DNA of 64,000 nt from a virus, in the IMG/VR virus record IMGVR_UViG_3300018044_000001, positions 24,573-88,572 of that record, one strand, 5' to 3'. A model generated the notes under the pieces. The model was not told the DNA's origin, ran no database searches, and saw nothing but the letters and a program-made list of their open reading frames with translations. Positions 4,922-40,283 of the stretch are shown one piece after another. A program made the translations under genes and the position numbers. Each line of letters starts with the position of its first letter. The stretch's first letter is position 1.

Positions 4922-7900
4922 TTATGTCCAGCCACTAGCGAACTGACCCCACGCGTTGCCGCGGCTACGCATGAGCTGCAAGATGTCAGTCTGGACCATG
5001 AGAGCGATCTGGCGCGGGTCTTGGTTGCTGTTGATCTCAATGTGGATATCGCCAAAAGTGACGTTGCCGCCGCCAGTGCTTGTAGTGGCAGCGACAGATG
5101 GGATACCAGTCGTGATGTTGCCTCTGGCCATTGCCTGTTGTGTCTGCTGGGGATTCAGGACAAGTTCAGGACCAGACTCACCTATCAACGCGAAGGATGG
5201 ACGAGTCACCAGACCACCACCAGCAACGTGCAAGAAATTTTCCAGCCCATGCACGACGCCGCCAGCAAGACCCGCCGCTCCAGCAATGGCACCGCCACCA
5301 GGAATGTGCGAGATGATCTCATGCCAAATCTTGGAACCGATGTCGCCCAACGCGCTGATGATGCGACCAGGAAGTGCCTTAAAGAAGTTCACGATCGGGT
5401 CCAGTACGTGTGTCTCGATCCAGGTGCCTGAAGTCTCAAGTGCACCCCAAATCGTTGACACGATATTGCCCATGCCGCTGACGATGCGACCAGGGAGTGC
5501 AGTGAAGAAGTTGACGACCGGTGCGATTACGTTGGTGTCAACCCATGTCGCAGATGTCTTGAGTCCACCCCAAATGATCGAAGCAATGTCACCCAAACCA
5601 GACAGGATGCGACCGGGTAGGCCGGTGAAGAACGAGACGACGGGGGTCAGGACGTTTGCATTGATCCATGAGGCCGAGGACTTCAGCGCGCCCCATATTG
5701 TCGATACGACGTTGCCAAATGCGGACGAGATACGACCAGGGAGTGCAGTGAAAAAGTCCACGATACCATCAACGACACGCTTGATATCGGGCAAGATATC
5801 ACCAAAATGCGAGCTGACCCACTCTACGATGTCTTCAAAGAAATGGATGATCTGCTTGTGGAACATGATAAACAGGGCCAAGGCTGGCGAAATAGGAGCT
5901 AGCAGAATCTCTGCAAGCAACTCCCAGTGCTTCTTGATCCAACCGACTACGGCGTCAAAGGCGCGCTCGATTGGCTGGATAAAGTCGTTGTCTATGGCGT
6001 GCCAAGCGTCTTCGAATGGCGCGGCGATATCATGACCTATCCTCTTGAAGAAGTCTTCAATGGCCGACCAATGCTTGATGATCAGTGTTGCCCCGGCAGC
6101 GAGTGCCAACACTGCCGTTGTCACAGGGAAGAACGCCGCAGCGATGGCAACCAGTGCGGCGATCAACAGCGGTTTGTGATCGACCAGAAATGTGAAGACC
6201 TTGCTGATGCCTTTCCATAATAGGTCAAGCGCTGGTTCGACATCTTTCCATACCGACTTTATGGCAGCAGAAATCTGAGGCCAGTCTTTGATGAACCCTT
6301 GAACCACCTTCTCGACTACGCCCAAGAGCTTCCCTAGAACAGGGATCAACTTCTCGCCAAGTGATGTCAGTAGGTCATCGGCCGTCGCCTTCATTGTCTT
6401 GAACTCGACAGAGAGTGTCTGACTCTGAATCGCCGCGCCGCGCTGCGCCGATCCCATCTTGGTGACCGATGCAACAGCCTTGTCGTAAGCACCAGCACCG
6501 CTCTGTATGGTGGTAACAAGCTTGCCTGCTCCCGAACCAAGGCCACGTGCTGTCAACTCCGCGGTAGCCTGCGCAGTGGACATGCCCGCAATCTTGTCGT
6601 GCAATTGCCCAATGATGGAGGACGTGCCGATGAACTGGCCCTTGCTGTTCAACACTGTGATGCCAAGTTTCTGGTATGCCTCGTTGGATACTTTGGCGGC
6701 ATCGGCAGAACTCTTGAACTTGCCCCACAACACTGTGTTCTCTACGCTCAGACCCTTGGTAGCATCGGTCACTGCCGTGGTGCTCATCGTGCCCTTTTGA
6801 TATTCGGCGGCAAGCGCACGGAGGCTCGGCGGCAAGTTCTGCAACGTGACATTCATTGCGATCTGAGTCTTTTGTGCCTCAGATGCAGGCTTTAACAGGG
6901 CCGTAAAGGTCGTCGTCAGTGCACTCATGGCTTGACGACCCGACTCACCGTGGTTTGTCAAGTCGACCATCAAACCGGCAAGATCGCCAATCGGCGGTGC
7001 CATGGCACCAATGCGAGTCTTGGCGCGTATCATGGCCGAACTGAGCGAGTCAACGCCTTGTCCTGTCGCGTTGGACGCGTTGAACAGGATGTTCGAAACA
7101 CCAGCGGCGTCCTTTGCACCCATGCTGAATGCCTGCAAAGTCTTGGCGACCGTTGACGTTGCATCACTCAAGCTGATCTGCTTGGCCGTGGCGAGATCGG
7201 CAGCGGCGTTCATCACCTGCGTGGCCTGTGCCGTCGTCAGCACGCTGCCCTGTACGGACTCCAACTGGCCAGCAACACCAGCATATGCTTGGGCCATTTC
7301 CTTGCCGCTGAACTCAGACTTGCCAGCAGTGTCGAGAAAAGCGTTGCCGATAGCAGTGGCATTCTTGATGGACTCACCAGCGGCTACGGCAATCGCAGCG
7401 TTGGCGGATTGCATCTGGTCGCCAAAGTGGAGGGCAAGTGCACCAGTGCCAACTATGCCCGCGCCGAGTGCACCCCACCCACCGAGCAGCGCGTTGGGTA
7501 CGCCCATGTTGCCGAGCATCTTCTTGATGCCACCACTGCTCTTTTCGGCACTACTGCCGACCTTCTCGGCCTTGGTGCCAATCTTCTCTACGTCAGCACC
7601 CGTCTTCTCTGCTACGGTACTGACACCACCGAGAGATCCGCCAATGCCCGCCGCAGCCACCGCAACATCATCACGGGCACCAGTAGCGGCAATGCCGACG
7701 CCACCAATAGCGCCGCCAATGTCTGATGCTGCACCTGCAACGGTGTCACTGGCCGTGCTGGCAGCGATACCAATGCCACCAACGGATTCAGCGGCGATAC
7801 CCGCCGCGCCTGCAACGTCATCGCTGGCACTACGTGCGGCGACACCAACGCCACCGACTGCGCCAGCAGCGTCCGCAGCGTCAGACTTGATACCGCTCAG

Positions 7901-8053
7901 TCCCGTGCTAGCACCCATCGCGTCAAGTTCGCCAGTGGATGTCTCGGCAGACGCGCCAAGCTCGGCCATTTGTGCCTTGGCTTCGTCCATCTTGGCCGTG
8001 AACTCATCGGTGTTGGCGATCAGCGTTGCAATAACGGGATCAAGTACTGGCAT
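4922..8053 (-). CDS. Tail tape measure protein
   Basis: 1043 aa, Ala/Gly-rich helical; periodic FFTALPGRI repeats; C-terminal GESGPE motif; follows the chaperone gene. Confidence 0.92.
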   Translation of the reverse strand: MPVLDPVIATLIANTDEFTAKMDEAKAQMAELGASAETSTGELDAMGASTGLSGIKSDAADAAGAVGGVGVAARSASDDVAGAAGIAAESVGGIGIAASTASDTVAGAASDIGGAIGGVGIAATGARDDVAVAAAGIGGSLGGVSTVAEKTGADVEKIGTKAEKVGSSAEKSSGGIKKMLGNMGVPNALLGGWGALGAGIVGTGALALHFGDQMQSANAAIAVAAGESIKNATAIGNAFLDTAGKSEFSGKEMAQAYAGVAGQLESVQGSVLTTAQATQVMNAAADLATAKQISLSDATSTVAKTLQAFSMGAKDAAGVSNILFNASNATGQGVDSLSSAMIRAKTRIGAMAPPIGDLAGLMVDLTNHGESGRQAMSALTTTFTALLKPASEAQKTQIAMNVTLQNLPPSLRALAAEYQKGTMSTTAVTDATKGLSVENTVLWGKFKSSADAAKVSNEAYQKLGITVLNSKGQFIGTSSIIGQLHDKIAGMSTAQATAELTARGLGSGAGKLVTTIQSGAGAYDKAVASVTKMGSAQRGAAIQSQTLSVEFKTMKATADDLLTSLGEKLIPVLGKLLGVVEKVVQGFIKDWPQISAAIKSVWKDVEPALDLLWKGISKVFTFLVDHKPLLIAALVAIAAAFFPVTTAVLALAAGATLIIKHWSAIEDFFKRIGHDIAAPFEDAWHAIDNDFIQPIERAFDAVVGWIKKHWELLAEILLAPISPALALFIMFHKQIIHFFEDIVEWVSSHFGDILPDIKRVVDGIVDFFTALPGRISSAFGNVVSTIWGALKSSASWINANVLTPVVSFFTGLPGRILSGLGDIASIIWGGLKTSATWVDTNVIAPVVNFFTALPGRIVSGMGNIVSTIWGALETSGTWIETHVLDPIVNFFKALPGRIISALGDIGSKIWHEIISHIPGGGAIAGAAGLAGGVVHGLENFLHVAGGGLVTRPSFALIGESGPELVLNPQQTQQAMARGNITTGIPSVAATTSTGGGNVTFGDIHIEINSNQDPRQIALMVQTDILQLMRSRGNAWGQFASGWT

Positions 8054-8061
8054 TGTCTCCC

Positions 8062-8310
8062 CTAAATCAACAGGGTCTTGTTGTCTGCTGCTAGTTCGGC
8101 GGCGACTTCGTTGTACACGCCGTGTATCTTGAGCAACAACGTCACTTCGTCATAGGGACGCGCGTCGTACTCGGCAGGGGTAGCGCCAAACAACTTACAA
8201 AATCGGTACATGCGGAATGCCTCTGCTGTCTCTGGTGACAGGGGCGTCAGGAGCGTCTTGCCGGTGAGTGCTAGCTTGAGTCGGTGGAGTTCGCGATAGG
8301 GGCTTTTGGG
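8062..8310 (-). CDS. -1 frameshift extension of the chaperone (gpGT T-segment)
   Basis: C CCA AAA heptamer at 8310-8304; -1 frame open to TAG at 8062 (PKSPYRELHRLKLAL...KTLLI), just before the tape measure gene. Confidence 0.85.
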   Translation of the reverse strand, partial: PKSPYRELHRLKLALTGKTLLTPLSPETAEAFRMYRFCKLFGATPAEYDARPYDEVTLLLKIHGVYNEVAAELAADNKTLLI

Positions 8311-8693
8311 TCAGGACTGACCTCAAACTCATCCTCGCCAAACTTGATACCAGCAACGGCAGCGACAGTCAGTGGCGTGTAAATGGACATCGGGAGGTTG
8401 TCCACGTCGTCTGCACTCTGAGGCAATGGGCGATCAATCGTCCACGAGACTAGCCTCAGGTGCACGCAGGTGCGCTGGAATAGGTCGATGGTATCCATGT
8501 CGTCGGCAGTGAGATGCGCGGCCTGTGTCCACGTATCGGGGTCGGCAGGATCGAATCCGAATTCCTTGAGGTGCAGCGCGGTGCCAGCAGCGGTCAGTTG
8601 CGACTTGGATAGCAGCTTCATTTCCCTGTTGGTCAGTTCGGACTTTTCCTTCAGGACTGCGGTGCCACCAGGGATGGTGATTTCGGTTGTCAT
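8271..8693 (-). CDS. Tail assembly chaperone (gpG-like)
   Basis: ATG at 8693; LVSWTIDRPLP motif; ends DPKAP over a slippery site. Confidence 0.85.
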   Translation of the reverse strand: MTTEITIPGGTAVLKEKSELTNREMKLLSKSQLTAAGTALHLKEFGFDPADPDTWTQAAHLTADDMDTIDLFQRTCVHLRLVSWTIDRPLPQSADDVDNLPMSIYTPLTVAAVAGIKFGEDEFEVSPDPKAPIANSTDSS

Positions 8694-9022
8694 TGCGCTC
8701 TTGTCTCCTTGCGCTTGTCGTATTGGTATGCTGCTGTATCGACCGCGGCGACGGCTATAAGCCAGTCCACCGCGTCGGGGTCGTTCTTGTCTGTCTCTAG
8801 GAACTGCTCGTGAGTGCAACCAGTGAAGATCTTCCTATACGCGAACTCCCTGAGATACTTGACGGCGGTCTCACAATCGTCCAGTTCCTCGGGTCCGATG
8901 TAGTTGTCGCGTCGTAACGCGGAAAGTCGGCGCAGTTCGGTGTCGGGTGAGCCAGGCGTCTTATCAGGCGCGAAGCTCACCTTTCGACCACTGCGCCGAC
9001 TAAGGATCTGATAGGTTTCCAT
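8690..9022 (-). CDS. Hypothetical protein resembling the gpGT T-segment
   Basis: 110-aa ORF with SD; similarity to the frameshift extension seen by eye. Confidence 0.6.
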   Translation of the reverse strand: METYQILSRRSGRKVSFAPDKTPGSPDTELRRLSALRRDNYIGPEELDDCETAVKYLREFAYRKIFTGCTHEQFLETDKNDPDAVDWLIAVAAVDTAAYQYDKRKETRAQ

Positions 9023-30401: not shown

Positions 30402-30851
30402 TTAGATTCCTAACGCAGCACCCCACGCGTCACGAAAGATGCGAGGTATGACAGGTAGCGCCTTGTCGACGCCTGGCTGCAGGTAGGCGTACGGGGGCTG
30501 GTTGAAGTGTCTGCCCAAACTGTCCGTACCCGTGAAACCCAGCTCGATGCGACGACCATAGATCATTGTCGGTGCGACAGATATGGTGTATTTGCCAGGT
30601 CCGAGCATGATCGGCTCTGGTGGGATGAGCATGATGGACCGACGCAACGAACCTGTCACTACGTTCGGACGGTTGCCACCTACGTGCGGTTGTCCCTTCG
30701 GATGGTTGCCCTCGAACTCACGCCTGGCGTTGTCCCTAATGAGCAGAGCACCTGTAGCCGTACCCGCTTTGGTTGCCTCGTTGATTCGCTTGATCAACGC
30801 GTCCATGGAATCGTTGAAACCCTTGGCGTCGATTTTGAAGCCACCAGGCAT
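30402..30851 (-). CDS. HK97 gp10-like neck/morphogenesis protein
   Basis: PNVVTGSLRRSI, YGRRIELG, PYAYLQP motifs; TAATG coupling to portal. Confidence 0.75.
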   Translation of the reverse strand: MPGGFKIDAKGFNDSMDALIKRINEATKAGTATGALLIRDNARREFEGNHPKGQPHVGGNRPNVVTGSLRRSIMLIPPEPIMLGPGKYTISVAPTMIYGRRIELGFTGTDSLGRHFNQPPYAYLQPGVDKALPVIPRIFRDAWGAALGI

Positions 30852-33800
30852 TACTCGTACCCCGTCACTGCTGTGCTTGCACAACGACACAGAGGATGCT
30901 CGGGAATGGACGGATCATCGGTGCCAACGTCATACGGGCCATTGTCGGCATTCTCTAGGCAATCCTCGCACGCGTTGTCTTCGGCAATCCACCCCCACTG
31001 CGAGATACCGTTGACTTCGTATGTATCCTGCGATGCTGTCTCCGCTGCCCGACAACATTCTGTGTCCGCTATCATGTACGCATTGGCCGTCACGGCATCA
31101 CTTAGTGACGTGGCAATCGTGTCTACACTGTCGCCCCTCGCAATCCCATCCGCGAGCACATTGCCAACACGGTCAATCCCGTTGTCAATCGCAGACTTGA
31201 TAGTGATGCCAGCCTGCTCAAGTAGTTGCTGCAGTCCACCATTGGCAACGAGGTCGGATGCTTGGATACTGCCAGGAGTCCAGTCGTCCCATGACAACGC
31301 AGTACCGATAGCCATCTGTGCATCAGGTGATATCTGTTGTGCCGCTGCGTGCGAGCCGACCATGTAACTCTCGGCAATAAGATCACGCAGGATTTGCGCG
31401 GCTGATGACTGTGCTACGGTGACGTTCATTGCAGCAGCAGATTGGGCAATGCCCTGGTCGTCTGCACCACCACCAGCATCAGCGACTGCCTTCGCAGCAG
31501 TCTTACGCTGTGCCTCATCTATCGCCTGGTGCAACCCCTTGGTGCTGTGCTTCAGTGCTGCCGTGAGTAATGGGGCGTAGTGGGCGACGATGGCGTCGCG
31601 GAGGGCGTCGATGGGGTGTGTTGCTTTTGCTAACCACGGAGGTAGTGTCCATGATCCCACAGACTTTGCAGCAGATGGTGTCTGCACCGTGAACTGAATC
31701 GTGCCGTCCTTCTTGATACCTGTCACTACGTAGTCAGATCCACGAGGCAGGATCACCTCGCCTTGTCCTGTCCACGTCATCAGTGCGTGCGAACCGGCAG
31801 GTATGTTGATCTCTACGTTGTGGCCAGGACGGAAGTCGCCGTATTGATTGGCCATTTCACGCAGCATCGTCGTGGACTCATAACCAGGATCGTGATAGGT
31901 GTCGCCTACTTTCAATCCTTCAAGCGGTGCAGCATTCGTAAAGCCACGGTAGACCGTCGTGTCTGCTGTTACTGTCCTGCTTGCGATGGCACTGTCAAGA
32001 CCCTTGACCTGACCAGCGAAGCCACGAGTAGAACCGCTTTCGCGTAGTCCGATGTTAACATCAGCACCGCCTGCGGGCCTCGTGTAATCCGATACCGCTC
32101 GTGCCTCAGATGCAGTCAGCGGACGCTCTTCCTTGAACGTTCCCGCGTCGTGAATGGCTGCCAATTGTCGCTCTGCCGCTGTTGGCTTCATGCCTTCAAA
32201 CGGCGGCGAGTAAACGCAGGGATTGCTCTCGCCGCTCGACGCTGCGGCACGACCGCCACCACCACTTATGTGTGCAGTGCGTGCACCATCCTCGTTGTGA
32301 CTACCACCAGTGACGTCAGGCGGGCGACTAGCACTAGGGGATGAAGTTCTGCCGCCGCCACGGCCATACAGATCCTCGTAAGATGTGACGTGTCCGCCAC
32401 CGCTGCCAAACTCGCCCTGCGCGTTACGCTCCTGAGTCTCCCACGAGTCGCCCCATTTGGCTAGTTGCTCAGGGGTAGTTAGCCCACGAGAGTGGGCGGG
32501 ATCTTTTGGGTCTGCTTTGACCGCATTGTTAGCTTTGTCGCCACCCAAAGCAAATCGCACTACTTCATCGCCACGATGTACCGACAGGTAATCAAACGTC
32601 AGCGGTGTCAGTGGTAGTGGCTTAGGTAGCGGATCATCAGGGTCTAGATAAGCAAGCGTGATGTGGGGCATGAAGTCATGTTCACTAGCACTCAGGTCTT
32701 CCAGTGCTTCGCGCAAGTCAGTAATGCCAGCAATGTTGGGCACAACATACACTGGTTTCAGTCCGTCGCTACTTGCCGATGGAGCAAACGACGCAATGCC
32801 GCTGATGGTACCAGTCAAAGGTCCGGGCGCGTCCTTCGCTGCCTTACGGGCTGCATCGCATGCTTCAGCAAATGACTTATCGTCAACGTCTGGACCGAGA
32901 TAAACGACCGTCAGGTGAAAATCTGTGATTCCACCAGATAGCGGAGTAATCACACCGTCAGGCACGTCAAGAGATATCATGCCAGAACGTGGATTCAGGT
33001 CGTACGCCTGTGCACTCTTTACCGCGCCGAGCAGGCTCCAATCTGAACTTTGGCATTCCACTCTGACAGCACTATTCCCAACAACGTCACTAGGCTCCCA
33101 CCATGCAGCAGCAGCAATCTCGCCGGTGTCGCGATCAGTCACGTCACCGAGGTCGATGGCAGACTCGTGCTTGATTTGCAGAACGAACGCTTGGTACGTA
33201 CCGTCAGGTGTGAGCCATGAGCCGGTGATGTCACCTTGAGGAAGTGGCAGGCCAACTTCGGCTTGCCATTCCCTGGTAGCACCAGAGAACGCGTCCTCGC
33301 CTTTGTGACACTGGCCGCCGGGCCATTCCCATGTGCCCGGTGCTAGATGGTCGTCGTTCACGCGCTGCACCATGAGAACACGGCCGGTATCGGCGGCGAG
33401 GACGATTATGCCAGCAGCGTCGGGTTGGGCGTTGACGACGGACTTGATAGCATCGAGATCACCAGCACGTCCGAGGTCGTTTAGATGTCTGCCCTGTACG
33501 CTGGCCACTGCGGAGAACGAAAAGTCGCGCCAGCTTCCGCGGTCGATGCGTGCCTTGGCGAACTTGACGAATGACTTGAGTTCCTTCTCTGCGTCCGTGT
33601 CGGATTCGCTCTTGGAATCGCTGGCAGAACTGTCCTTGCTTGGACTTGATCCTGTAAGCTCAGTATTTCCGTCAGAGTCTGTCGAAGTTCCTCCAGCTGC
33701 GCTACCAGTTGGCTTGCGTCCGCTGTTATCGTCAGGTGTACTTCCGTTGGCATTAGCGTCTGTGCCTCCATTGTTTGCGGCAGGTGGTGGAACTGGTGAA

Positions 33801-35518
33801 CCGTCAGGTGCGGTCGGAAGGGGCTTGCCGTCAGGACCGACAAATACTTGCTTGGGGGGTTCTGGTGGATTGAGGGTGGCTTCGGTGTTCGCGTCTTGGA
33901 CGGCGAGAGTGCCCTTGAGGAACACTGGACCTTGTGCTCCGGCAATGAACGGTTCGTCGGCTTCCGGCATGGAGTACAGGGGCAGCCCGTTCTTTGCGCG
34001 CCAGTCGTTCAACGTGATACGACCGTTGTTGACGGTCTGTGTGTCGGCGTTGGCCTGTTGCAGAATGTCCTGCTCAGAACCGCCAGTGTCTTGACAAGTA
34101 GCGGTAATCTCACGACCGATACCAAGGTAGCGACGAGCTAGGTCGTTTTGTACGTCAATCAGGAAGTTGACAAACGCTTCAGTGACGAAGTGTTCGGTCT
34201 GGTCTTCCTCGCCCTCCATCTGGCGACCGCCAGACAGTCCAGCCTTTGCCTGCACACCTAACTGTGTCGCGGGAACGCCAAACTTGGACCCCATCTGAAT
34301 GATGAGAAAATTGTCGTAGTCCGACTTGTAGTGCTCTTCAATTTGCGGTGGCCACTCGGGCTTCATGCCGGGAGGCAACAGGAACGCTTGCTGACGACGG
34401 TTGATCTGACCGCTCAAACGGTCATTCATGGTCTGTTCATATCCGAATTGTTGTTCAGGCGTCCACCCTGTCGGATTGTCCTTGTCCATCGTGTAGTACG
34501 TTTTGGGGGACATTCCGTAAACGTATTCAGACCTCATCCACGCCTGACGCTGCAGATACGTCGTAGCGACTGTCATGACCTCTTCGGTCGGAGGATAGCC
34601 ATAGACAGATTCGGGACGGGGACGACGGATGTAATACGCCAACTGGTCGCTGGCAAACTCACCCTCGACGGGGCCATCGCCAGCTTGGAATTCCCCGCGT
34701 GGAAAGCCGTATAAGATTTGCTGGAAGGCAGGGGCGGGAGGCTCGGGAGGAAAGCCCTGATTGTCGAGCAGTATCTTAATCGTGCTCGTGTCAATCGGTG
34801 CCAGCGCAAAGAGATCGCCGCCAAGGGTCCGCTGTGGGTATATGCAGATACCGTCATATACCAGGGACTGCCAGATGATCTCCGCGAGCCACTGTGAGGG
34901 CGAGTGCTTGCTGCGCTGGTCGGGACGCTCGAAGAACGACTTAACGCGATCAAGCTCGGTGCCGTATTTGTCGGCGGCGAGGGCCATGGCGCGGGCGTGG
35001 TTCGCTTCGCCCGTGTCTCGCATAATCTGTTCAATAATTGAGTCGCTATACCCCCACGACCAATCGCGACCACAGATGCCGTCTTGTACCAACTGGATGC
35101 ACCTATTGACCACATCACATTCTTCTGCAATCCACTTCAGCGCGGTCCACGGGAGTGCTCTGTCCGCGAGTTGTAAATTTATGGCTACCAGGTACTGTGC
35201 ACGACGCGGTAGGGCACGACCGCCAGGACCAAGCGCGTCTATCGCGTCAGGGAAGAGTGGTACGCCCGGACCAAAGCCAGAGTTGAAATCACCCAGAGGA
35301 CGAGGCAACGGCACATATCCCGGCACTTGTCCTGCCGTCTGTGCAAACGGTGACGACGGGTTGGGAATGTACGTAGCACCGCTAACAGCGCGGCCCTGCG
35401 AGTTGGCAGCGGCCGCGACAATATCGCGACTCATCGCCTTCTCGACGCCCGCCTCAACCGCTGCACTGAGTGCAGCCTGTTTGCGTTCTGTACGGCGCGA
35501 CAGGATGGGGATGGCCAA
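30851..35518 (-). CDS. Portal protein fused to Nudix, 2H phosphoesterase, ADP-ribosyltransferase and MuF domains
   Basis: N-terminal portal (PIDTSTIK, YGYPPTE, ITLNDWRAKNGLP); WEWPGG..REWQAEVG; HLT...HIT; VYRG/YESTT/QGE; C-terminal C..C...HPLCRC. Confidence 0.88.
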   Translation of the reverse strand: MAIPILSRRTERKQAALSAAVEAGVEKAMSRDIVAAAANSQGRAVSGATYIPNPSSPFAQTAGQVPGYVPLPRPLGDFNSGFGPGVPLFPDAIDALGPGGRALPRRAQYLVAINLQLADRALPWTALKWIAEECDVVNRCIQLVQDGICGRDWSWGYSDSIIEQIMRDTGEANHARAMALAADKYGTELDRVKSFFERPDQRSKHSPSQWLAEIIWQSLVYDGICIYPQRTLGGDLFALAPIDTSTIKILLDNQGFPPEPPAPAFQQILYGFPRGEFQAGDGPVEGEFASDQLAYYIRRPRPESVYGYPPTEEVMTVATTYLQRQAWMRSEYVYGMSPKTYYTMDKDNPTGWTPEQQFGYEQTMNDRLSGQINRRQQAFLLPPGMKPEWPPQIEEHYKSDYDNFLIIQMGSKFGVPATQLGVQAKAGLSGGRQMEGEEDQTEHFVTEAFVNFLIDVQNDLARRYLGIGREITATCQDTGGSEQDILQQANADTQTVNNGRITLNDWRAKNGLPLYSMPEADEPFIAGAQGPVFLKGTLAVQDANTEATLNPPEPPKQVFVGPDGKPLPTAPDGSPVPPPAANNGGTDANANGSTPDDNSGRKPTGSAAGGTSTDSDGNTELTGSSPSKDSSASDSKSESDTDAEKELKSFVKFAKARIDRGSWRDFSFSAVASVQGRHLNDLGRAGDLDAIKSVVNAQPDAAGIIVLAADTGRVLMVQRVNDDHLAPGTWEWPGGQCHKGEDAFSGATREWQAEVGLPLPQGDITGSWLTPDGTYQAFVLQIKHESAIDLGDVTDRDTGEIAAAAWWEPSDVVGNSAVRVECQSSDWSLLGAVKSAQAYDLNPRSGMISLDVPDGVITPLSGGITDFHLTVVYLGPDVDDKSFAEACDAARKAAKDAPGPLTGTISGIASFAPSASSDGLKPVYVVPNIAGITDLREALEDLSASEHDFMPHITLAYLDPDDPLPKPLPLTPLTFDYLSVHRGDEVVRFALGGDKANNAVKADPKDPAHSRGLTTPEQLAKWGDSWETQERNAQGEFGSGGGHVTSYEDLYGRGGGRTSSPSASRPPDVTGGSHNEDGARTAHISGGGGRAAASSGESNPCVYSPPFEGMKPTAAERQLAAIHDAGTFKEERPLTASEARAVSDYTRPAGGADVNIGLRESGSTRGFAGQVKGLDSAIASRTVTADTTVYRGFTNAAPLEGLKVGDTYHDPGYESTTMLREMANQYGDFRPGHNVEINIPAGSHALMTWTGQGEVILPRGSDYVVTGIKKDGTIQFTVQTPSAAKSVGSWTLPPWLAKATHPIDALRDAIVAHYAPLLTAALKHSTKGLHQAIDEAQRKTAAKAVADAGGGADDQGIAQSAAAMNVTVAQSSAAQILRDLIAESYMVGSHAAAQQISPDAQMAIGTALSWDDWTPGSIQASDLVANGGLQQLLEQAGITIKSAIDNGIDRVGNVLADGIARGDSVDTIATSLSDAVTANAYMIADTECCRAAETASQDTYEVNGISQWGWIAEDNACEDCLENADNGPYDVGTDDPSIPEHPLCRCASTAVTGYE

Positions 35519-36085: not shown

Positions 36086-36103
36086 GCTCCAGTCCTCTTT
36101 TCG

Positions 36104-36177
36104 TCCTGGTGGAGGGATTCGAACCCTCAACGCGTGGTCCTTGAAGCCACCGCCTCTGCCGGTTGGGCTACACCAGG
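36104..36177 (-). tRNA. tRNA-Leu(CAA), atypical short variable arm
   Basis: Acceptor CCTGGTG/CACCAGG-A; loop TT-CAA-GG; C31:A39 mismatch. Confidence 0.65.
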
Positions 36178-36201
36178 TAGCGTTATGACATCGTAGTCCA
36201 G

Positions 36202-36273
36202 AGCCAACGACGTGAGTCGAACACGCAACAACGAAGGTACGAGCTTCGCTTCCATCCGTAGGAACTCGCTGGC
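36202..36273 (-). tRNA. tRNA-Thr(CGT)
   Basis: CGAAG-CTCGTAC-CTTCG; TTCGA T-loop. Confidence 0.8.
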
Positions 36274-36319
36274 AAGCGGCCGTTCTTGTTAAACCGGGAA
36301 CATGCCCTAAAGCCGGTCG

Positions 36320-36402
36320 TGCGGATGGTGGGACTTGAACCCACATGCCTAACGGCAGTCGCTTTTAAGGCGACCGTGTATACCAATTCCAACCACATCC
36401 GC
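36320..36402 (-). tRNA. tRNA-Leu(TAA)
   Basis: GTCGC-CTTAAAA-GCGAC; long variable arm. Confidence 0.9.
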
Positions 36403-36406
36403 GTAG

Positions 36407-36480
36407 CACCCCTGGCGGGACTCGAACCCGCATCATACCATTACGGTTACTTGCTTAGAAGACAAGACCGATACAGGGGC
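36407..36480 (-). tRNA. D-armless tRNA-Arg(TCT)-like gene
   Basis: Acceptor and T-arm intact; CTTGT-CTTCTAA-GCAAG; no D-arm. Confidence 0.7.
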
Positions 36481-36481
36481 G

Positions 36482-36557
36482 TGACGGGGGCGGGATTTGA
36501 ACCACGCGACCTCTAGGTTATGGGCCTAGCGAGCTGACCAAACTGCTCTACCCCGCG
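36482..36557 (-). tRNA. tRNA-fMet-like (CAT)
   Basis: CGCGGGG start with 1:72 mismatch; CTAGG-CCCATAA-CCTAG. Confidence 0.8.
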
Positions 36558-36629
36558 TGGCAGATGTTGGTATCGAGCCAACCAGACACGATCCTTATGA
36601 GAGATCGCCGCTTACCCTGAGCAACTGCC
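36558..36629 (-). tRNA. tRNA-Met/Ile2(CAT), degenerate
   Basis: GATCT-CTCATAA-GGATC; irregular acceptor and D-arm. Confidence 0.6.
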
Positions 36630-36631
36630 GG

Positions 36632-36704
36632 GGTGACGGGGGGAACTCGAATCCCCTTGCACTAGGGCCACAACCTAGCCGCGTACCACGATGCGTCCCG
36701 TCAC
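36632..36704 (-). tRNA. tRNA-His(GTG), possibly 8/4 fold
   Basis: CTAGG-TTGTGGC-CCTAG; C73. Confidence 0.8.
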
Positions 36705-36706
36705 AG

Positions 36707-36777
36707 TACCAGTGGAAGGTGTCGAACCTCCGTCCCAACTTTGTAAGAGTTGTCGTCTCCCGTTGACATACACTGGC
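36707..36777 (-). tRNA. tRNA-Val(TAC)
   Basis: CAACT-CTTACAA-AGTTG. Confidence 0.85.
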
Positions 36778-36781
36778 GTAG

Positions 36782-36853
36782 TGCTCCTACCCGGACTCGA
36801 ACCGAGAATGCCTGCTTAAAGGGCAGAACCGTTTCCATTACGATCATAGGAGC
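36782..36853 (-). tRNA. tRNA-Lys(TTT)
   Basis: TCTGC-CCTTTAA-GCAGG. Confidence 0.8.
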
Positions 36854-36855
36854 AA

Positions 36856-36930
36856 TGGTAGGCGACCAGGGAATCGAACCCTGTATCAGACCATATCAGA
36901 GTCTGCGATTAGCCGTCTTCTTCGTCGCCC
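36856..36930 (-). tRNA. tRNA-Ile(GAT)
   Basis: AGACT-CTGATAT-GGTCT; encoded CCA. Confidence 0.75.
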
Positions 36931-36931
36931 G

Positions 36932-37006
36932 TGGTGGTCCCTGTCGGACTCGAACCGACCTCTCTGCGTCTTCAGCGCGGCGCTAATCCGTCTCAGCTAA
37001 AGGACC
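36932..37006 (-). tRNA. tRNA-Phe(GAA)
   Basis: Loop CT-GAA-GA; encoded CCA. Confidence 0.85.
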
Positions 37007-37010
37007 GTAG

Positions 37011-37087
37011 TGCGGGCCGCGGGACTCGAACCCGCATGGACCGTATTACCCTTTCAACATTTCATAAGAATGAGGGGATACGCCCGC
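37011..37087 (-). tRNA. D-armless tRNA-Ile(TAT)-like gene
   Basis: CATT-CTTATGA-AATG; T-arm GCGGG-TTCGAGT-CCCGC; A73; no D-arm. Confidence 0.65.
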
Positions 37088-37089
37088 AA

Positions 37090-37163
37090 TGGAGCCGATG
37101 GCAGGAGTTGAACCCGCGTCTGGTGAGTACAAAACACCTGTACTTCCGTTGTACGACACCGGC
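37090..37163 (-). tRNA. tRNA-Thr(TGT)
   Basis: Loop TT-TGT-AC; encoded CCA. Confidence 0.85.
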
Positions 37164-37166
37164 AAA

Positions 37167-37314
37167 TGTCGCCCCTAGTCGCGTCGAAATCCTTGGGTAG
37201 CTAATCCCAACCTGCTGCGGTTACCAAGCGCAGCCACGACCAATGGAACCCTCCGCGTACGAGTAACGCGGCACCAGTCACGGACTATTAACCGTTGTCA
37301 GGGGTGGGGCGACA
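37167..37314 (-). ncRNA. Unidentified 148-nt structured RNA in the tRNA array
   Basis: 9-bp closing stem TGTCGCCCC/GGGGCGACA with four internal hairpins. Confidence 0.6.
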
Positions 37315-37315
37315 G

Positions 37316-37388
37316 CTCCGAGGGTAGGAATCGAACCCACGCGCACTGGGTCCAAGGCCCAGCTACGAAACCAACATCGTACCTCGGA
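37316..37388 (-). tRNA. tRNA-Gln(TTG)
   Basis: CTGGG-CCTTGGA-CCCAG. Confidence 0.85.
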
Positions 37389-37389
37389 A

Positions 37390-37463
37390 TGGAACGGCTG
37401 ACCCGACTCGAACGGGCGTATTCAGGGTGGAAACCTGACGCTCTGCCTCTGAGCTACAACCGC
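37390..37463 (-). tRNA. tRNA-Gly(TCC)
   Basis: TCAGG-TTTCCAC-CCTGA; TCCA end. Confidence 0.88.
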
Positions 37464-37464
37464 A

Positions 37465-37539
37465 TGGAGCGACTAGCGGGAGTCGAACCCGCACTTGCAC
37501 CATGGCGAGGTGCCGTCATAGCCACTAGACCATAATCGC
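37465..37539 (-). tRNA. tRNA-Gly(GCC)
   Basis: GCACC-TCGCCAT-GGTGC; TCCA end. Confidence 0.85.
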
Positions 37540-37541
37540 AT

Positions 37542-37616
37542 TGGAGCGCAGGGTCGGAATCGAACCGACGAAAATGCGGGTTGCAGCCGCACGCCTTCCC
37601 ATTCAGCCACCTACGC
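37542..37616 (-). tRNA. tRNA-Cys(GCA)
   Basis: TGCGG-CTGCAAC-CCGCA; U73 CCA. Confidence 0.88.
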
Positions 37617-37620
37617 ACAG

Positions 37621-37694
37621 CTCCGGCGGGAAGAGTCGAACTTCCATGATGAGCACCTTAACGGGATGCTGGCTTGCCATTAGCCCACACCGGA
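37621..37694 (-). tRNA. tRNA-Asn(GTT)
   Basis: GCATC-CCGTTAA-GGTGC; G73. Confidence 0.82.
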
Positions 37695-37698
37695 ATAG

Positions 37699-37770
37699 TG
37701 ATCCGTACCAGAATCGAACTGGTGTCTCAGGCTTGAGGGGCCTGCGTACGTACCTCTGTACCAACGGATC
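37699..37770 (-). tRNA. tRNA-Glu(CTC)
   Basis: CAGGC-CCCTCAA-GCCTG. Confidence 0.85.
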
Positions 37771-37786
37771 TTTGTACTAATAGACT

Positions 37787-37862
37787 TGGTACTCCCAGTC
37801 GGAATCGAACCGGCGTTTCGACCTTGAAAGAGTCGCGTCCTCTGCCGCTAGACGATGGGAGC
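37787..37862 (-). tRNA. tRNA-Glu(TTC)
   Basis: CGACT-CTTTCAA-GGTCG; encoded CCA. Confidence 0.9.
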
Positions 37863-37867
37863 CTTCG

Positions 37868-38050
37868 TTACATCCACACCAACTGTTCCACCATCGCATT
37901 GATCGACAACCCGACGAACGACAGCAACAGAATCAGACCCATGAACACCAACGACACTACGTCAAGTTGTACCGTCAAGAATAGCGGGATCGCAAGTAGC
38001 CACGCGGTGCGATAGATCCACGACTCGATGCGTTGCAGGCGGTCAATCAT
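37868..38050 (-). CDS. 60-aa two-helix membrane protein inside the tRNA array
   Basis: AAAAGGAG SD, ATG 38050, two hydrophobic segments. Confidence 0.65.
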   Translation of the reverse strand: MIDRLQRIESWIYRTAWLLAIPLFLTVQLDVVSLVFMGLILLLSFVGLSINAMVEQLVWM

Positions 38051-38069
38051 GTGGCTCCTTTTGTTGCAG

Positions 38070-38153
38070 CGGAAAGTCGGCGAGTCGGACGCCATGGCTT
38101 GCACCACCAACGCGCTTCCAACGCGTGCCCATCACCGTCAGGGTTGACTTTCC
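38070..38153 (-). tRNA. tRNA-Ser(GGA), 8/4 fold
   Basis: GGAAAGTC/GACTTTCC 8 bp; T-stem GGCG/CGCC; loop TT-GGA-AG. Confidence 0.82.
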
Positions 38154-38216
38154 ATGGCGCAACGCCTACACGCGCAGTGCACAGCGCCACCTCCACCCAC
38201 TTCCTCGGCGTTGCAG

Positions 38217-38300
38217 CGGATGACGGGCCATTCGAAGACCAAGCCGTGAAGCTCACACCGCTTTCGAGGCGGGTCTGGTTCCCTGTCCAGTTCATCATCC
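38217..38300 (-). tRNA. tRNA-Ser(CGA), 8/4 fold
   Basis: GGATGATG/CGTCATCC; T-stem GGTC/GGCC; loop CT-CGA-AA. Confidence 0.82.
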
Positions 38301-38304
38301 AGAG

Positions 38305-38389
38305 CGGTAGGGTGAGAGCACGATTCCCAGGCCAAGAGGCCCCAGACGGGTTCAAGCCGTCGCCGCTAACCCTGAACGGTTACCCTACC
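38305..38389 (-). tRNA. tRNA-Ser(TGA), 8/4 fold
   Basis: GGTAGGGT/ACCCTACC; GACGG-CTTGAAC-CCGTC. Confidence 0.8.
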
Positions 38390-38390
38390 G

Positions 38391-38474
38391 CGGAAGACGG
38401 GATACTCGAAAACCACACCTTGCAGTGCGCACTCGTTAGCAGCGAGGCCCGGCACCCTGTCCGGTTCGTCTTCC
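38391..38474 (-). tRNA. tRNA-Ser(GCT), 8/4 fold
   Basis: GGAAGACG/CGTCTTCC; loop CT-GCT-AA. Confidence 0.8.
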
Positions 38475-38478
38475 TTAG

Positions 38479-38551
38479 CGTCGCCGGTGGGACTCGAACC
38501 CACATCTCCCATTACGGCTACCGACTTAGGAGGTCGGGCCGGTACGACGAC
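38479..38551 (-). tRNA. D-armless tRNA-Arg(CCT)-like gene
   Basis: GTCGTCG/CGGCGAC; CCGAC-CTCCTAA-GTCGG; no D-arm. Confidence 0.7.
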
Positions 38552-38552
38552 A

Positions 38553-38626
38553 TGGAGCCTACGCACAGAGTTGAACTGTGATCTCTGGTGTACCACGCCA
38601 GGACTCTTCCGCTGAGCTACGCAGGC
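38553..38626 (-). tRNA. tRNA-Thr(GGT)
   Basis: Loop GT-GGT-AC; encoded CCA. Confidence 0.8.
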
Positions 38627-38736
38627 AATAGGTAGAGCTTCCCACACTCCCGAGTGCGTACATTCACCCGGCTACGTCGTAAACGACGGGTGTACCAGAT
38701 GGCGTTGGCTGTCATGGCTGGTGGTAAAACGGCTCG

Positions 38737-38810
38737 TACCCCCGGCACGATTCGAACGCGCGTCTCCTGATCCGTAGTCAGGTGCTACAAATCCACTCAG
38801 CTACGGGGGC
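38737..38810 (-). tRNA. tRNA-Arg(ACG)
   Basis: CCTGA-CTACGGA-TCAGG. Confidence 0.9.
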
Positions 38811-38811
38811 A

Positions 38812-38889
38812 TGGCGGAAATGACGGGATTCGAACCCGCGGTCTGGACCTTGACGGGGTCCCGAGGACGGCCAACTCCTCTACATCTCC
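38812..38889 (-). tRNA. tRNA-Asp(GTC)
   Basis: GGACC-CCGTCAA-GGTCC; GCCA end. Confidence 0.88.
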
Positions 38890-38893
38890 ATCG

Positions 38894-38966
38894 CTCCGAG
38901 GGGAGGATTCGGACCCCCGACATCAAGGTTCAGAGCCTTGCGTTCTGCCCACTGAACTACCTCGGA
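38894..38966 (-). tRNA. tRNA-Gln(CTG)
   Basis: CAAGG-CTCTGAA-CCTTG. Confidence 0.88.
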
Positions 38967-38971
38967 ATGAG

Positions 38972-39045
38972 TCTGGGTGGCAGGATTTGAACCTGCGCTC
39001 TCCTGGTCCCAGGCCAGGCGCGTTTCCAAGCTTCGCTACACCCAG
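38972..39045 (-). tRNA. tRNA-Pro(TGG)
   Basis: CCTGG-CCTGGGA-CCAGG; C1:G72, A73. Confidence 0.88.
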
Positions 39046-39048
39046 TTG

Positions 39049-39120
39049 TCCACCTGAAGGGAATCGAACCCCCACGAACTCGTTAAGAGCGAGTCACGCT
39101 AGCCATTACGTCACAGGTGG
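39049..39120 (-). tRNA. tRNA-Lys(CTT)
   Basis: ACTCG-CTCTTAA-CGAGT; overlaps the 3' end of the HNH ORF. Confidence 0.85.
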
Positions 39121-39742
39121 TCAATCGTGCAATATGTTTACGGATGGCATTATCCGACACGCCTAGCTTGCGACCCAGTTGTAGGTAGTTGCTGTCTTGC
39201 AACATGGCAAGTAGTTCGTCCAGGGGTGGCCATGCGATCTTTGTCTTATGCGGCACCTTGTAACGGCGCTGTACTTTGACTTTGGGTGGCTTCTCTGGAT
39301 TGGTGACCTGAGCATGACAGTTCGGACACAGAAACCGCAAGTTCTCTTTGCGGTCGTCCTCCCAATCGTTGTTAATATGGTCAACCTCTAGCACCAGTGA
39401 GTGGCCCTGCCACTTTCCAGTGTTGTCGCAGCCTTCGCAGCGATATTCCATGCCCGATTCGATCATCGCTCGGCGCAGTCGCACTGCTTGCTGTCGCCTC
39501 GATCCGGGTGCTTTCAGAACCAGAACTTGGTCCCATGTCATTTTCTGGGGGGACGCCTTGCCGCGACGAGAAGCTTGTCCCAAGAAATGCGATGTGTCAA
39601 TTCCTAACGTCTTGATCTTGCGAGAGATCCACGTATGAGTACCACCGGCTTGTCGTCTGCCGAGACGACGAATAACTTCGGCAACAGAAACACTGCTGGC
39701 GACAGCCGTTCTCAATTCGGTTTCATCAATCAATCTGTACAT
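39083..39742 (-). CDS. HNH homing endonuclease inserted in the tRNA array
   Basis: CEGC...LEVDHINNDWEDDRKENLRFLCPNCH, with flanking HTH-like segments. Confidence 0.9.
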   Translation of the reverse strand: MYRLIDETELRTAVASSVSVAEVIRRLGRRQAGGTHTWISRKIKTLGIDTSHFLGQASRRGKASPQKMTWDQVLVLKAPGSRRQQAVRLRRAMIESGMEYRCEGCDNTGKWQGHSLVLEVDHINNDWEDDRKENLRFLCPNCHAQVTNPEKPPKVKVQRRYKVPHKTKIAWPPLDELLAMLQDSNYLQLGRKLGVSDNAIRKHIARLTTCDVMASVTRS

Positions 39743-39827
39743 AATGCAACATCCTGTCTCTACACAGGGGGTGGGGCGTTGGGTGGTAGAGCACCCGCAG
39801 CCCCATGAAACGCCTCTACGCGTTCAG

Positions 39828-39909
39828 TACGGACGGAGAGATTCGAACTCTCAACGAGCAAAGCTCAGTGGGGCCTAGACCCACCGCGTAACCATTCCGC
39901 CACGTCCGC
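39828..39909 (-). tRNA. tRNA-Leu(TAG)
   Basis: GTGGG-TCTAGGC-CCCAC; long variable arm. Confidence 0.85.
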
Positions 39910-39910
39910 G

Positions 39911-39985
39911 TGGTGGAGGATAAGGGAGTCGAACCCTTAATTCCTGCGTGCAAAACAGGTGTGTTTCCGCTAGCACTAATCCCCC
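39911..39985 (-). tRNA. tRNA-Ala(TGC)
   Basis: G3:U70; loop TT-TGC-AC; ACCA end. Confidence 0.9.
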
Positions 39986-40052
39986 ATGGAAACCGCCAGC
40001 TGACATGGTAGAACCAGCCCGACCTATTACGGGATCGGTGCTGACGGCTTCG

Positions 40053-40136
40053 TCACAGCGGTGGGAGTCGAACCCACGTAGCACAAGGCGCTGGTTTTAC
40101 GGACCAGAGCAACAATCCGACAGTTGCCTCACTGTG
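40053..40136 (-). tRNA. tRNA-Tyr(GTA) with C1:G72
   Basis: CTGGT-CCGTAAA-ACCAG; long variable arm. Confidence 0.8.
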
Positions 40137-40211
40137 TAGACTACGATGTCAAGGACCACATCGACTGTACTGCGGCGACGCCTTCATGGCTAGTCGTCCA
40201 GTCTCTCTGCG

Positions 40212-40283
40212 CGGGACCGCCAGGAGTCGAACCTGGTTTTGAGAGGTTTTGGAGACCTCGTGCCTACCCGTTGGCTCGTTCCC
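40212..40283 (-). tRNA. tRNA-Trp(CCA)
   Basis: GAGGT-CTCCAAA-ACCTC; G73. Confidence 0.82.

Follow-up and report, generated by a model that had tools for sequence, protein, structure and literature searches.

The 64,000-nucleotide (nt) stretch of the virus record IMGVR_UViG_3300018044_000001 analyzed here in its full length (the window) carries on its minus strand a single head gene in which a portal domain is fused to NUDIX hydrolase, 2H phosphoesterase, ADP-ribosyltransferase (ART) and MuF domains, and the point where portal-NUDIX-2H gives way to (ART-)MuF bears what is, with a probability put at about 0.85, a programmed -1 ribosomal frameshift signal. The site joins a slippery heptamer, C_CCA_AAA, to a short spacer, a stem-loop and an early stop in the -1 frame (Table 1), and so combines the features by which a -1 frameshift signal is recognized in sequence, namely a heptamer in register, a downstream structure, conserved slippery letters and a defined outcome in the -1 frame. 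The source record, from a soil phage, is 88,572 bp long, has direct terminal repeats and is rated complete, and in a profile search of this whole genome the fusion gene was the sole match to the portal family PF04860 and the sole match to the MuF family PF04233.

The steps at the site can be drawn from the standard model of -1 frameshifting, in which ribosomes would be paused by the hairpin 6 nt downstream of the heptamer and a fraction of them, with tRNA-Pro on CCA and tRNA-Lys on AAA, would slip back to read CCC AAA. Shifted ribosomes would read 11 further codons, end at the TGA of the -1 frame and release a portal-NUDIX-2H protein with a predicted length of 1005+11 = 1016 aa, while ribosomes that do not slip would make the 1555-aa protein with added ADP-ribosyltransferase and MuF, these two parts being made only in the unshifted long form. 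Both the slipping itself and its frequency are inferred. At the heptamer the zero frame reads GAC CCA AAA GAT, and it stays open for 550 codons beyond this point, compared with 11 codons for the -1 frame. The initial annotation of this DNA had proposed such a site, and its anatomy and every coordinate (heptamer, 6-nt spacer, hairpin, -1 stop and 1016-aa product) were found to be right; likewise, its placing of the site in the linker between 2H and ART agrees with the Pfam domain borders, where 2H extends to residue 965 and ART begins at residue 1131.

The codons of the window itself carry little information, and the argument depends on its relatives. With residues 840-1130 of the fusion protein as query, 103 homologous proteins were found, mostly portal fusions with 2H and varied C-terminal parts, with the 2H domain common to about 100 of them and an AKA..PK motif placed directly before a MuF-like segment in many. 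DNA of relatives was taken from 73 loci in viral contigs (IMG/VR), 63 in metagenome contigs and one from genomes, the sole locus from the genome scan being a Streptosporangiaceae metagenome-assembled genome. A near-DNA search of GenBank phages gave no match to the window, and protein searches among cultured phages gave distant relatives only. A hidden Markov model (HMM) of the MuF module was built from 24 loci, and the region upstream of every MuF match was then inspected in any frame; with this HMM the MuF part of the fusion gene has a score of 100, and in a six-frame search it has 37.3 bits for PF04233. After removal of duplicates there were 37 distinct junction sites, made up of 32 that precede MuF modules, two (the window and L007) in which other cargo lies between heptamer and MuF, and three (L015, L041 and L140) in which the downstream part is not, or only weakly, MuF. 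The 76 flanking nt of these junctions have diverged nearly to saturation, their mean ungapped identity being 38% compared with 31% when shuffled, with more than 70% reached only by the pair formed by the window and L002.

Across the 37 junctions all seven letters of CCCAAAA are invariant, and no flanking column exceeds 89%, the best being the G that follows the heptamer (33/37). In the open reading frames (ORFs) concerned both codons are rare: sites included, CCA makes up 205 of 3400 proline codons and AAA 161 of 1207 lysine codons; the naive joint probability of CCA AAA at all sites is 1e-104 on the assumption of independent loci, a figure that is overstated as the loci share ancestry. Nearby invariant residues served as controls, the proline of the WPGW motif being encoded by CCC 13 times, CCG nine times, CCA twice and CCT once, with the lysine of the upstream AK[AS] motif encoded by AAG in 23 of 23 cases. 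Nine different codons, for seven amino acids, occur before CCA, and their third position is C in 37/37. This is conservation at the nucleotide level beyond the needs of the protein, and it stands alongside the sequence features of the site.

These codon data bear directly on the view that the conservation belongs to the protein or to the speed of translation, in which the site would be an AKA..PK linker, a cleavage site for the maturation protease or a set of rare codons slowing the ribosome for folding. In keeping with such a motif P1004 is invariant, and K1005 nearly so, in an alignment of 30 chosen homologues, AK[AS] occurs upstream of the site in 23/37, and a capsid maturation protease lies next to the gene in several of these phages. 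A protein motif would leave synonymous positions free to vary, yet 37/37 sites use CCA and AAA while other invariant prolines and lysines use common codons, nor would it demand that the variable residue before the proline always has a codon ending in C. A pause signal, for its part, explains neither the -1 stops nor the mirrored gene layouts described below. As such, a purely protein-level or speed-related origin is considered very improbable, and cleavage at the site could coexist with frameshifting.

Register and frame layout likewise point to frameshifting. Among the 32 heptamers from the search in any frame, MuF is in the zero frame of the heptamer in 30, in the -1 frame in two and in the +1 frame in none. 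At the 34 sites with an open zero frame the -1 frame stops after 1-22 codons, with a median of 7 and 33/34 within 18, while at control positions in the same ORFs (n=2904) the median distance to a -1 stop is 50 codons, with 25% within 18. The 45 nt downstream of the 37 sites have a mean minimum free energy z score of -1.34 relative to windows of the same ORF, with 18/37 in the most stable tenth and a Kolmogorov-Smirnov p of 1.5e-9; the downstream fold was compared by energy statistics and close pairs, the stems of different relatives being not alignable. In the window the 28-nt fold of the hairpin has -11.5 kcal/mol (z -4.35), a stability reached by 0/200 shuffles, and the 60-nt fold has -19.6 kcal/mol (z -2.65), reached by 2/200. 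A search of Rfam around the site gave no meaningful match, with one at E 0.49 falling well below the gathering score.

Upstream of the heptamer a sequence like a Shine-Dalgarno (SD) element, AAGGN[GC]G or GGAGG, occurs in 24/37 sites, in many of them as AAGGCGG at -17 to -11, 10 nt before the heptamer, with L062 having a perfect AAGGAGG at -20 to -14. Pairing to the anti-SD sequence is in the top tenth in 21/37 sites, and the motif is at most suggestive of an element acting at the RNA level. The check proposed in the initial annotation, that the DPK codons and the hairpin be conserved at the portal/MuF junction of related phages, thus returned CCCAAAA in 37/37 with short -1 ORFs and stable folds enriched. 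CCCAAAA is also in register in gene 3 of the cultured Arthrobacter phages Sonali, where that gene is annotated as a fusion of portal and MuF-like protein, and Mufasa8; it lies at codons 738 and 739, respectively, about 20 codons before the MuF module. Each of the two has a stop in the -1 frame 9 codons on and a stem, CCCTCC/GGAGGG, with a loop that differs between them.

In L029 and L061 the arrangement is mirrored. Here the zero frame ends 7 and 27 codons past the heptamer, respectively, while MuF is encoded in the -1 frame (HMM scores 259 and 262), which is open for 568 and 548 codons. The -1 frame of L029 has no ATG, GTG or TTG in the 52 codons before the site or the 30 codons after it, and since there is no start codon around the site, its MuF would be producible only by a shift. 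Judged by their sequences, MuF can be made only by -1 shifting in these two relatives. At L015:2621-2627 a 2H ORF ends 5 codons past a CCCAAAA in register with a -1 frame open for 600 codons that gave no match to the MuF HMM, and here the same cassette seems to append other large modules; no portal part was recognized at this locus. A fourth mirrored case may be presented by the homologous fusion protein P0043, which ends 35 residues past a GPK motif in a Pro/Arg/Gly-rich tail that looks out of frame. Taken with nucleotide conservation, register, short -1 ORFs and folds, the mirrored layouts lend support to the frameshift interpretation originally given to the site.

The heptamer is, from its distribution, a companion of the MuF module and not of the 2H domain. 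Of the 103 distinct 2H ends, 38 have an in-register CCCAAAA downstream with an open zero frame, these being the ones that precede MuF or a few other cargo parts, and none was found after the other 65. In L030, L043 and L062 the portal is joined directly to MuF with 2H coming later, and the heptamer is still present. L007:4241-5810 has about 250 residues of other cargo between heptamer and MuF, as in the window; its zero frame continues for 526 codons past the heptamer, with MuF starting at about 760 nt.

A natural comparison is offered by L002 and L003 (IMG/VR), which have 96% protein identity to the window over residues 1-1015 and are identical to it letter for letter in the 200 nt before the site. 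They diverge from the window right after CCCAAAAG and lack the ART module, their proteins having 1272 aa compared with 1555, with 34 nt in place of the 889-nt ART cassette; downstream, the MuF parts of the window and L002 have only 82% protein identity. Two independent sequencing runs of peat DNA gave contigs with the ART-less joint, 31613->32503, the cassette being polymorphic by insertion or replacement among near-identical phages of other peat samples. Contigs from two RNA libraries, which do not thereby prove transcription, likewise have the ART-less form and span the heptamer with no letter inserted or lost. The joint of the cargo swap is the heptamer itself, and the ART cassette brings its own version of the hairpin and of the -1 stop. 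Between the ART-less stem, GCCCAG/GCGA/CTGGGC, and that of the window, GCCCAC/TCTC/GTGGGC, the closing pair has changed on both sides in a compensatory manner, while the -1 stop is at the same position, as TAA in L002 and L003 and TGA in the window. Because stem and -1 stop are kept despite differing letters, the combination of heptamer, stem and stop appears to have been maintained on either side of the swap. The predicted ART domain itself has weak sequence matches to two ARTs of known structure, 1ojq (E 0.005) and 4xzj (E 0.0077). In published MuF toxins the toxic domain is C-terminal (PMC12226406, this and the other papers given by PMC or bioRxiv identifier being cited from those parts of them that were available), while in the window ART is N-terminal to MuF.

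The exactness of this joint raises the question of whether the letters mark a boundary between DNA or RNA modules with no recoding involved, either as a recombination joint for cargo or as a processing or pausing signal. Such a role would fit the start of the ART swap immediately after the shared letters, the contrast between identity upstream and divergence downstream in the L002 comparison and the constant position of the heptamer at the N-boundary of a MuF or cargo module, whatever lies before it. A boundary mark, however, needs neither a slipping register (0/32 being in the +1 arrangement) nor a nearby -1 stop, and leaves a MuF without a start in the -1 frame unexplained, while seven letters are too few for homologous exchange. 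The module-boundary explanation is therefore thought highly unlikely, and a programmed frameshift remains the preferred reading. Transcriptional slippage was also considered and was rejected, the run having only four A and three C and the contigs of two RNA libraries and two DNA runs having no indel at the heptamer, although this is weak evidence as contigs drop rare variants.

Several observations weigh against a programmed frameshift. In the window the heptamer alone is no commoner than chance, with five copies of CCCAAAA compared with 4.31 expected and 45 of 100 shuffles reaching five, and its codons are ordinary ones in a gene of 57% GC, CCA and AAA accounting for about 20% of the proline and lysine codons, respectively. 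The hairpin, with 6 bp, is modest, being at the 19th percentile among 45-nt windows of the same ORF, and in the relatives the downstream fold comes in part from the self-complementary sequence that encodes WPGW. The SD-like motif overlaps the conserved protein motif VAKA, so that an RNA-level role is inseparable from the needs of the protein, and the window has no such element upstream, its anti-SD pairing of -2.4 kcal/mol being at the 60th percentile. At 32523-32531 (minus strand) a G-to-T change gives the window AAT (Asn) in place of the AAG (Lys) of its ART-less relatives and destroys the SD-like AAGGCGG; because of this loss, shifting may be weaker in the window than in relatives.

Exceptions among the relatives add to these points. 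Counting the two cultured phages, CCCAAAA is absent within 400 nt of 5/41 fused junctions: L060 (G-P-Q), L071 (G-P-P), L080, L039 (partial match) and L065 (G-P-K, CCG AAA), all of them lower-scoring and more distant MuF subtypes. Synonymous loss of the heptamer in homologues was named in the initial annotation as grounds for abandoning the proposal; such loss does occur, but once only (L065), and the 5/41 are a minority. In three further loci, L045, L113 and L116, MuF is a separate gene. The default product would be the long form at 34 sites and the short form at 3, which is awkward for a simple model of a fixed ratio: if one ratio were required throughout, the efficiency would have to be close to one half, and otherwise the ratio would be lineage-specific, loosely constrained or not critical.

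The weaknesses of the window site invite the reading that its heptamer has been inherited but is functionally negligible here, with shifting at background level and the 1555-aa protein as the sole relevant product. The missing SD-like element, the unexceptional hairpin, the ordinary codons and the chance-level count of the heptamer are all in keeping with an idle site, and against it stand the compensatory pair and the conserved position of the -1 stop between the window and its ART-less relatives, kept despite diverged letters. A further consideration is that the same ten letters, with no structure, serve the phage's own tail-chaperone site, so that its translation would be expected to slip on them. 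An idle site is accordingly regarded as improbable, if somewhat less so than the other two alternatives, and the programmed frameshift is retained.

The ten letters common to the portal-gene site and the tail-chaperone site are GACCCAAAAG. At the latter the zero frame stops 10 codons on while the -1 frame continues to 8062, a run of 80 codons, and is followed directly by the tape measure gene (4922-8053, PHROG E 1e-45). The identity of the heptamer to the slippery site of the tail chaperone, asserted in the initial annotation, was borne out, the 10-mer at 8312-8303 being the same, in register and in the G/GT layout of tail assembly chaperones. No downstream structure was found at this second site (z +1.75), and the tail-chaperone-like ORF, 8271-8819 on the minus strand, gave no PHROG match at E 0.001; it is presumed to be the tail assembly chaperone only by its position and -1 extension, both of which are classical for such a gene. 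ARAGORN places a block of 27 tRNA genes at 36103-40283 (minus strand), directly upstream of the portal fusion gene, and these include tRNAs that decode both codons of the heptamer (Table 1). It is a conjecture that the tRNA-Lys(UUU) and tRNA-Pro(UGG) are linked to shifting at the two CCCAAAA sites.

A broader view can be offered tentatively, at a little under even odds. The C_CCA_AAA heptamer, a stem and a nearby stop in one frame would form a portable cassette, used by a large group of actinobacterial phages to decide for each subunit whether the portal carries MuF and its enzyme cargo. The cassette would truncate the protein in the window and extend it in some relatives whose MuF has no start of its own, it would also be the joint at which cargo is swapped, and the phage would bring the tRNAs for both slippery codons. 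The purpose would presumably be a 12-subunit portal ring in which bare and ART-MuF-bearing subunits are mixed, and a role in setting the ART-MuF load per head is plausible.

The portal is the protein at the unique vertex where DNA and ejected proteins leave the head. If the site works as proposed, the switch would explain how bare portal subunits arise in phages with fused portal-MuF genes and how a low-copy, portal-bound carrier of cargo is counted into the head. On the broader view, the portal vertex would be a mixed ring set by translation, with the dose of ejected enzyme tuned by the efficiency of frameshifting. The switch would give a handle on the dose of virion-delivered enzyme (ADP-ribosyltransferase, NUDIX or 2H phosphoesterase) that reaches the host, which is testable in the cultured Arthrobacter phages. 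For annotation, the consequence is that relatives with the mirrored layout are called as a truncated portal and a MuF gene that lacks a start.

Among the known systems close to this one is the E. coli dnaX gene, in which a -1 shift on A_AAA_AAG, with an SD-like element about 10 nt upstream, truncates tau to gamma. The dnaX site has been named as a control site in a preprint (bioRxiv 10.1101/2025.10.02.679949). As in dnaX, the heptamer of the window places Lys in the A site, a stem-loop follows it, a -1 stop is nearby, and a full-length and a truncated protein would share their N-terminal part. In most relatives the likeness extends to the SD-like element about 10 nt upstream, which the window lacks. 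The two differ in the heptamer, C_CCA_AAA compared with A_AAA_AAG, and in the gene, a phage head gene compared with a polymerase subunit.

The G/GT frameshift in the tail assembly chaperone of long-tailed phages was reportedly described by Xu, Hendrix and Duda in 2004. Programmed frameshifts in structural genes of tailed phages are textbook knowledge for the tail chaperones, with a few cases in capsid genes. In retroviruses a -1 frameshift extends the structural protein Gag with the enzyme part Pol. The relatives with mirrored layouts would resemble Gag-Pol in that a frameshift extension of a structural protein, on a minority of subunits, would be the sole way for enzyme cargo to get into the particle, while the differences are that retroviruses belong to another virus kingdom with no homology and that in the window the long form would be the default. 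The tail-chaperone shift, a conserved one in the -1 direction, fixes the ratio of short to long product of a phage structural gene (PMC7302621, PMC5009743, PMC4493119). The resemblance lies in the 10-mer shared with the phage's own G/GT site and in L029 and L061, which have the G/GT layout of a zero frame that comes to an end and a -1 frame that carries on; the differences are that the shift in the window would shorten the protein and that the gene pair is portal/MuF in place of G/T. The lambda virion contains neither G nor GT (PMC5009743), unlike the portal, which is a virion protein.

MuF, known as gp7 in SPP1, binds the portal and is present in low copy, with its gene directly behind that of the portal (Jamet et al., 2017; PMC5576092), and MuF proteins often have enzyme or toxin domains, ADP-ribosyltransferases included (PMC5576092). 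Fusions of portal and MuF have been annotated in Microbacterium phages (PMC7302621). Portal and MuF are thus described as separate genes or as plain fusions (PMC5576092, PMC7302621), while the window has a fusion with a putative shift at the joint. In the available parts of these two papers the word 'frameshift' has 0 occurrences in PMC5576092 and is used in PMC7302621 only for tail chaperones. Likewise, 'portal' has 0 occurrences in the first 300,000 of the 449,034 characters of the review of Atkins et al. (PMC5009743). Among the predictions that the PRFect study counts as 'false positive' are MuF-like and VIP2 genes, and the study speculates on fusion genes in general (PMC10885494, available parts). 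No published description of a frameshift in the portal gene or of recoding at portal/MuF was found, including in the available parts of PMC3556154 and PMC4493119, with supplementary maps and tables (PMC7302621, PRFect) and subscription journals outside the scope of the search. A putative frameshift signal at the portal/MuF joint is, to judge from the junction sequences, widespread and apparently undescribed.

Table 1. Positions in the window of the head gene, its recoding site, the ART cassette and related features.
Feature	Position	Strand	Details
Portal-NUDIX-2H-ART-MuF fusion ORF	30851..35518	minus	1555 aa, zero frame, TTG start as listed
Portal domain, residues 205-510	33989..34906	minus	Pfam PF04860, E 8.3e-13, 48.6 bits, cut-off 39.1
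NUDIX hydrolase domain, residues 699-812	33083..33424	minus	Pfam PF00293, E 1.3e-13
2H phosphoesterase / 2'-5' RNA ligase-like domain, residues 868-965	32624..32917	minus	Pfam PF13563, E 2.5e-6, 28 bits, cut-off 27
ART domain, residues 1131-1270	31709..32128	minus	Pfam PF03496, E 6.4e-11, 42.4 bits, cut-off 23.4
MuF module, about residues 1308-1547	30878..31597	minus	Pfam core 1450-1547; PF04233, E 2.5e-7, 31.8 bits, cut-off 29.6
Slippery heptamer C_CCA_AAA	32510-32504	minus	X_XXY_YYZ register, first C at codon position 3; codons D1003 P1004 K1005
Spacer GATCCC	32503-32498	minus	6 nt; G at 32503 right after the heptamer, likewise in 33/37 relatives
Stem-loop GCCCAC/TCTC/GTGGGC	32497-32482	minus	6-bp stem; putative downstream stimulator
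Second predicted stem CCCC...GGGG	32451..32475	minus	Adjoins the first, spans the -1 stop; from the 60-nt fold, predicted in the window alone
TGA stop of the -1 frame	32471-32469	minus	11 codons past the shift, tail RSRPLSWANYP
ART cassette	31614..32502	minus	889 nt, starting right after CCCAAAAG; 34 nt instead in ART-less relatives
Tail assembly chaperone G/GT-type shift site CCCAAAA	8310-8304	minus	In register, inside the 10-mer GACCCAAAAG at 8312-8303
tRNA-Lys(UUU)	36781..36853	minus	Decodes AAA of the heptamer; ARAGORN
tRNA-Pro(UGG)	38971..39045	minus	Decodes CCA of the heptamer; ARAGORN

The coding-strand copies of CCCAAAA in the window include a third, at 34501-34507 (minus strand) in the same gene, which is in the non-slipping register CCC AAA A; the remaining two are both in register and both at module joints. 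In L020, L032, L050 and L064 a Cys-rich insert (CPCGTP...NGWQHADGS...SDKM) is found between 2H and AKA..PK, and the heptamer still adjoins MuF. The family PF14528 (LAGLIDADG/intein-type) was found in two of the homologous fusion proteins, P0043, where it occurs with the portal family, and P0061, which is listed with NUDIX only.

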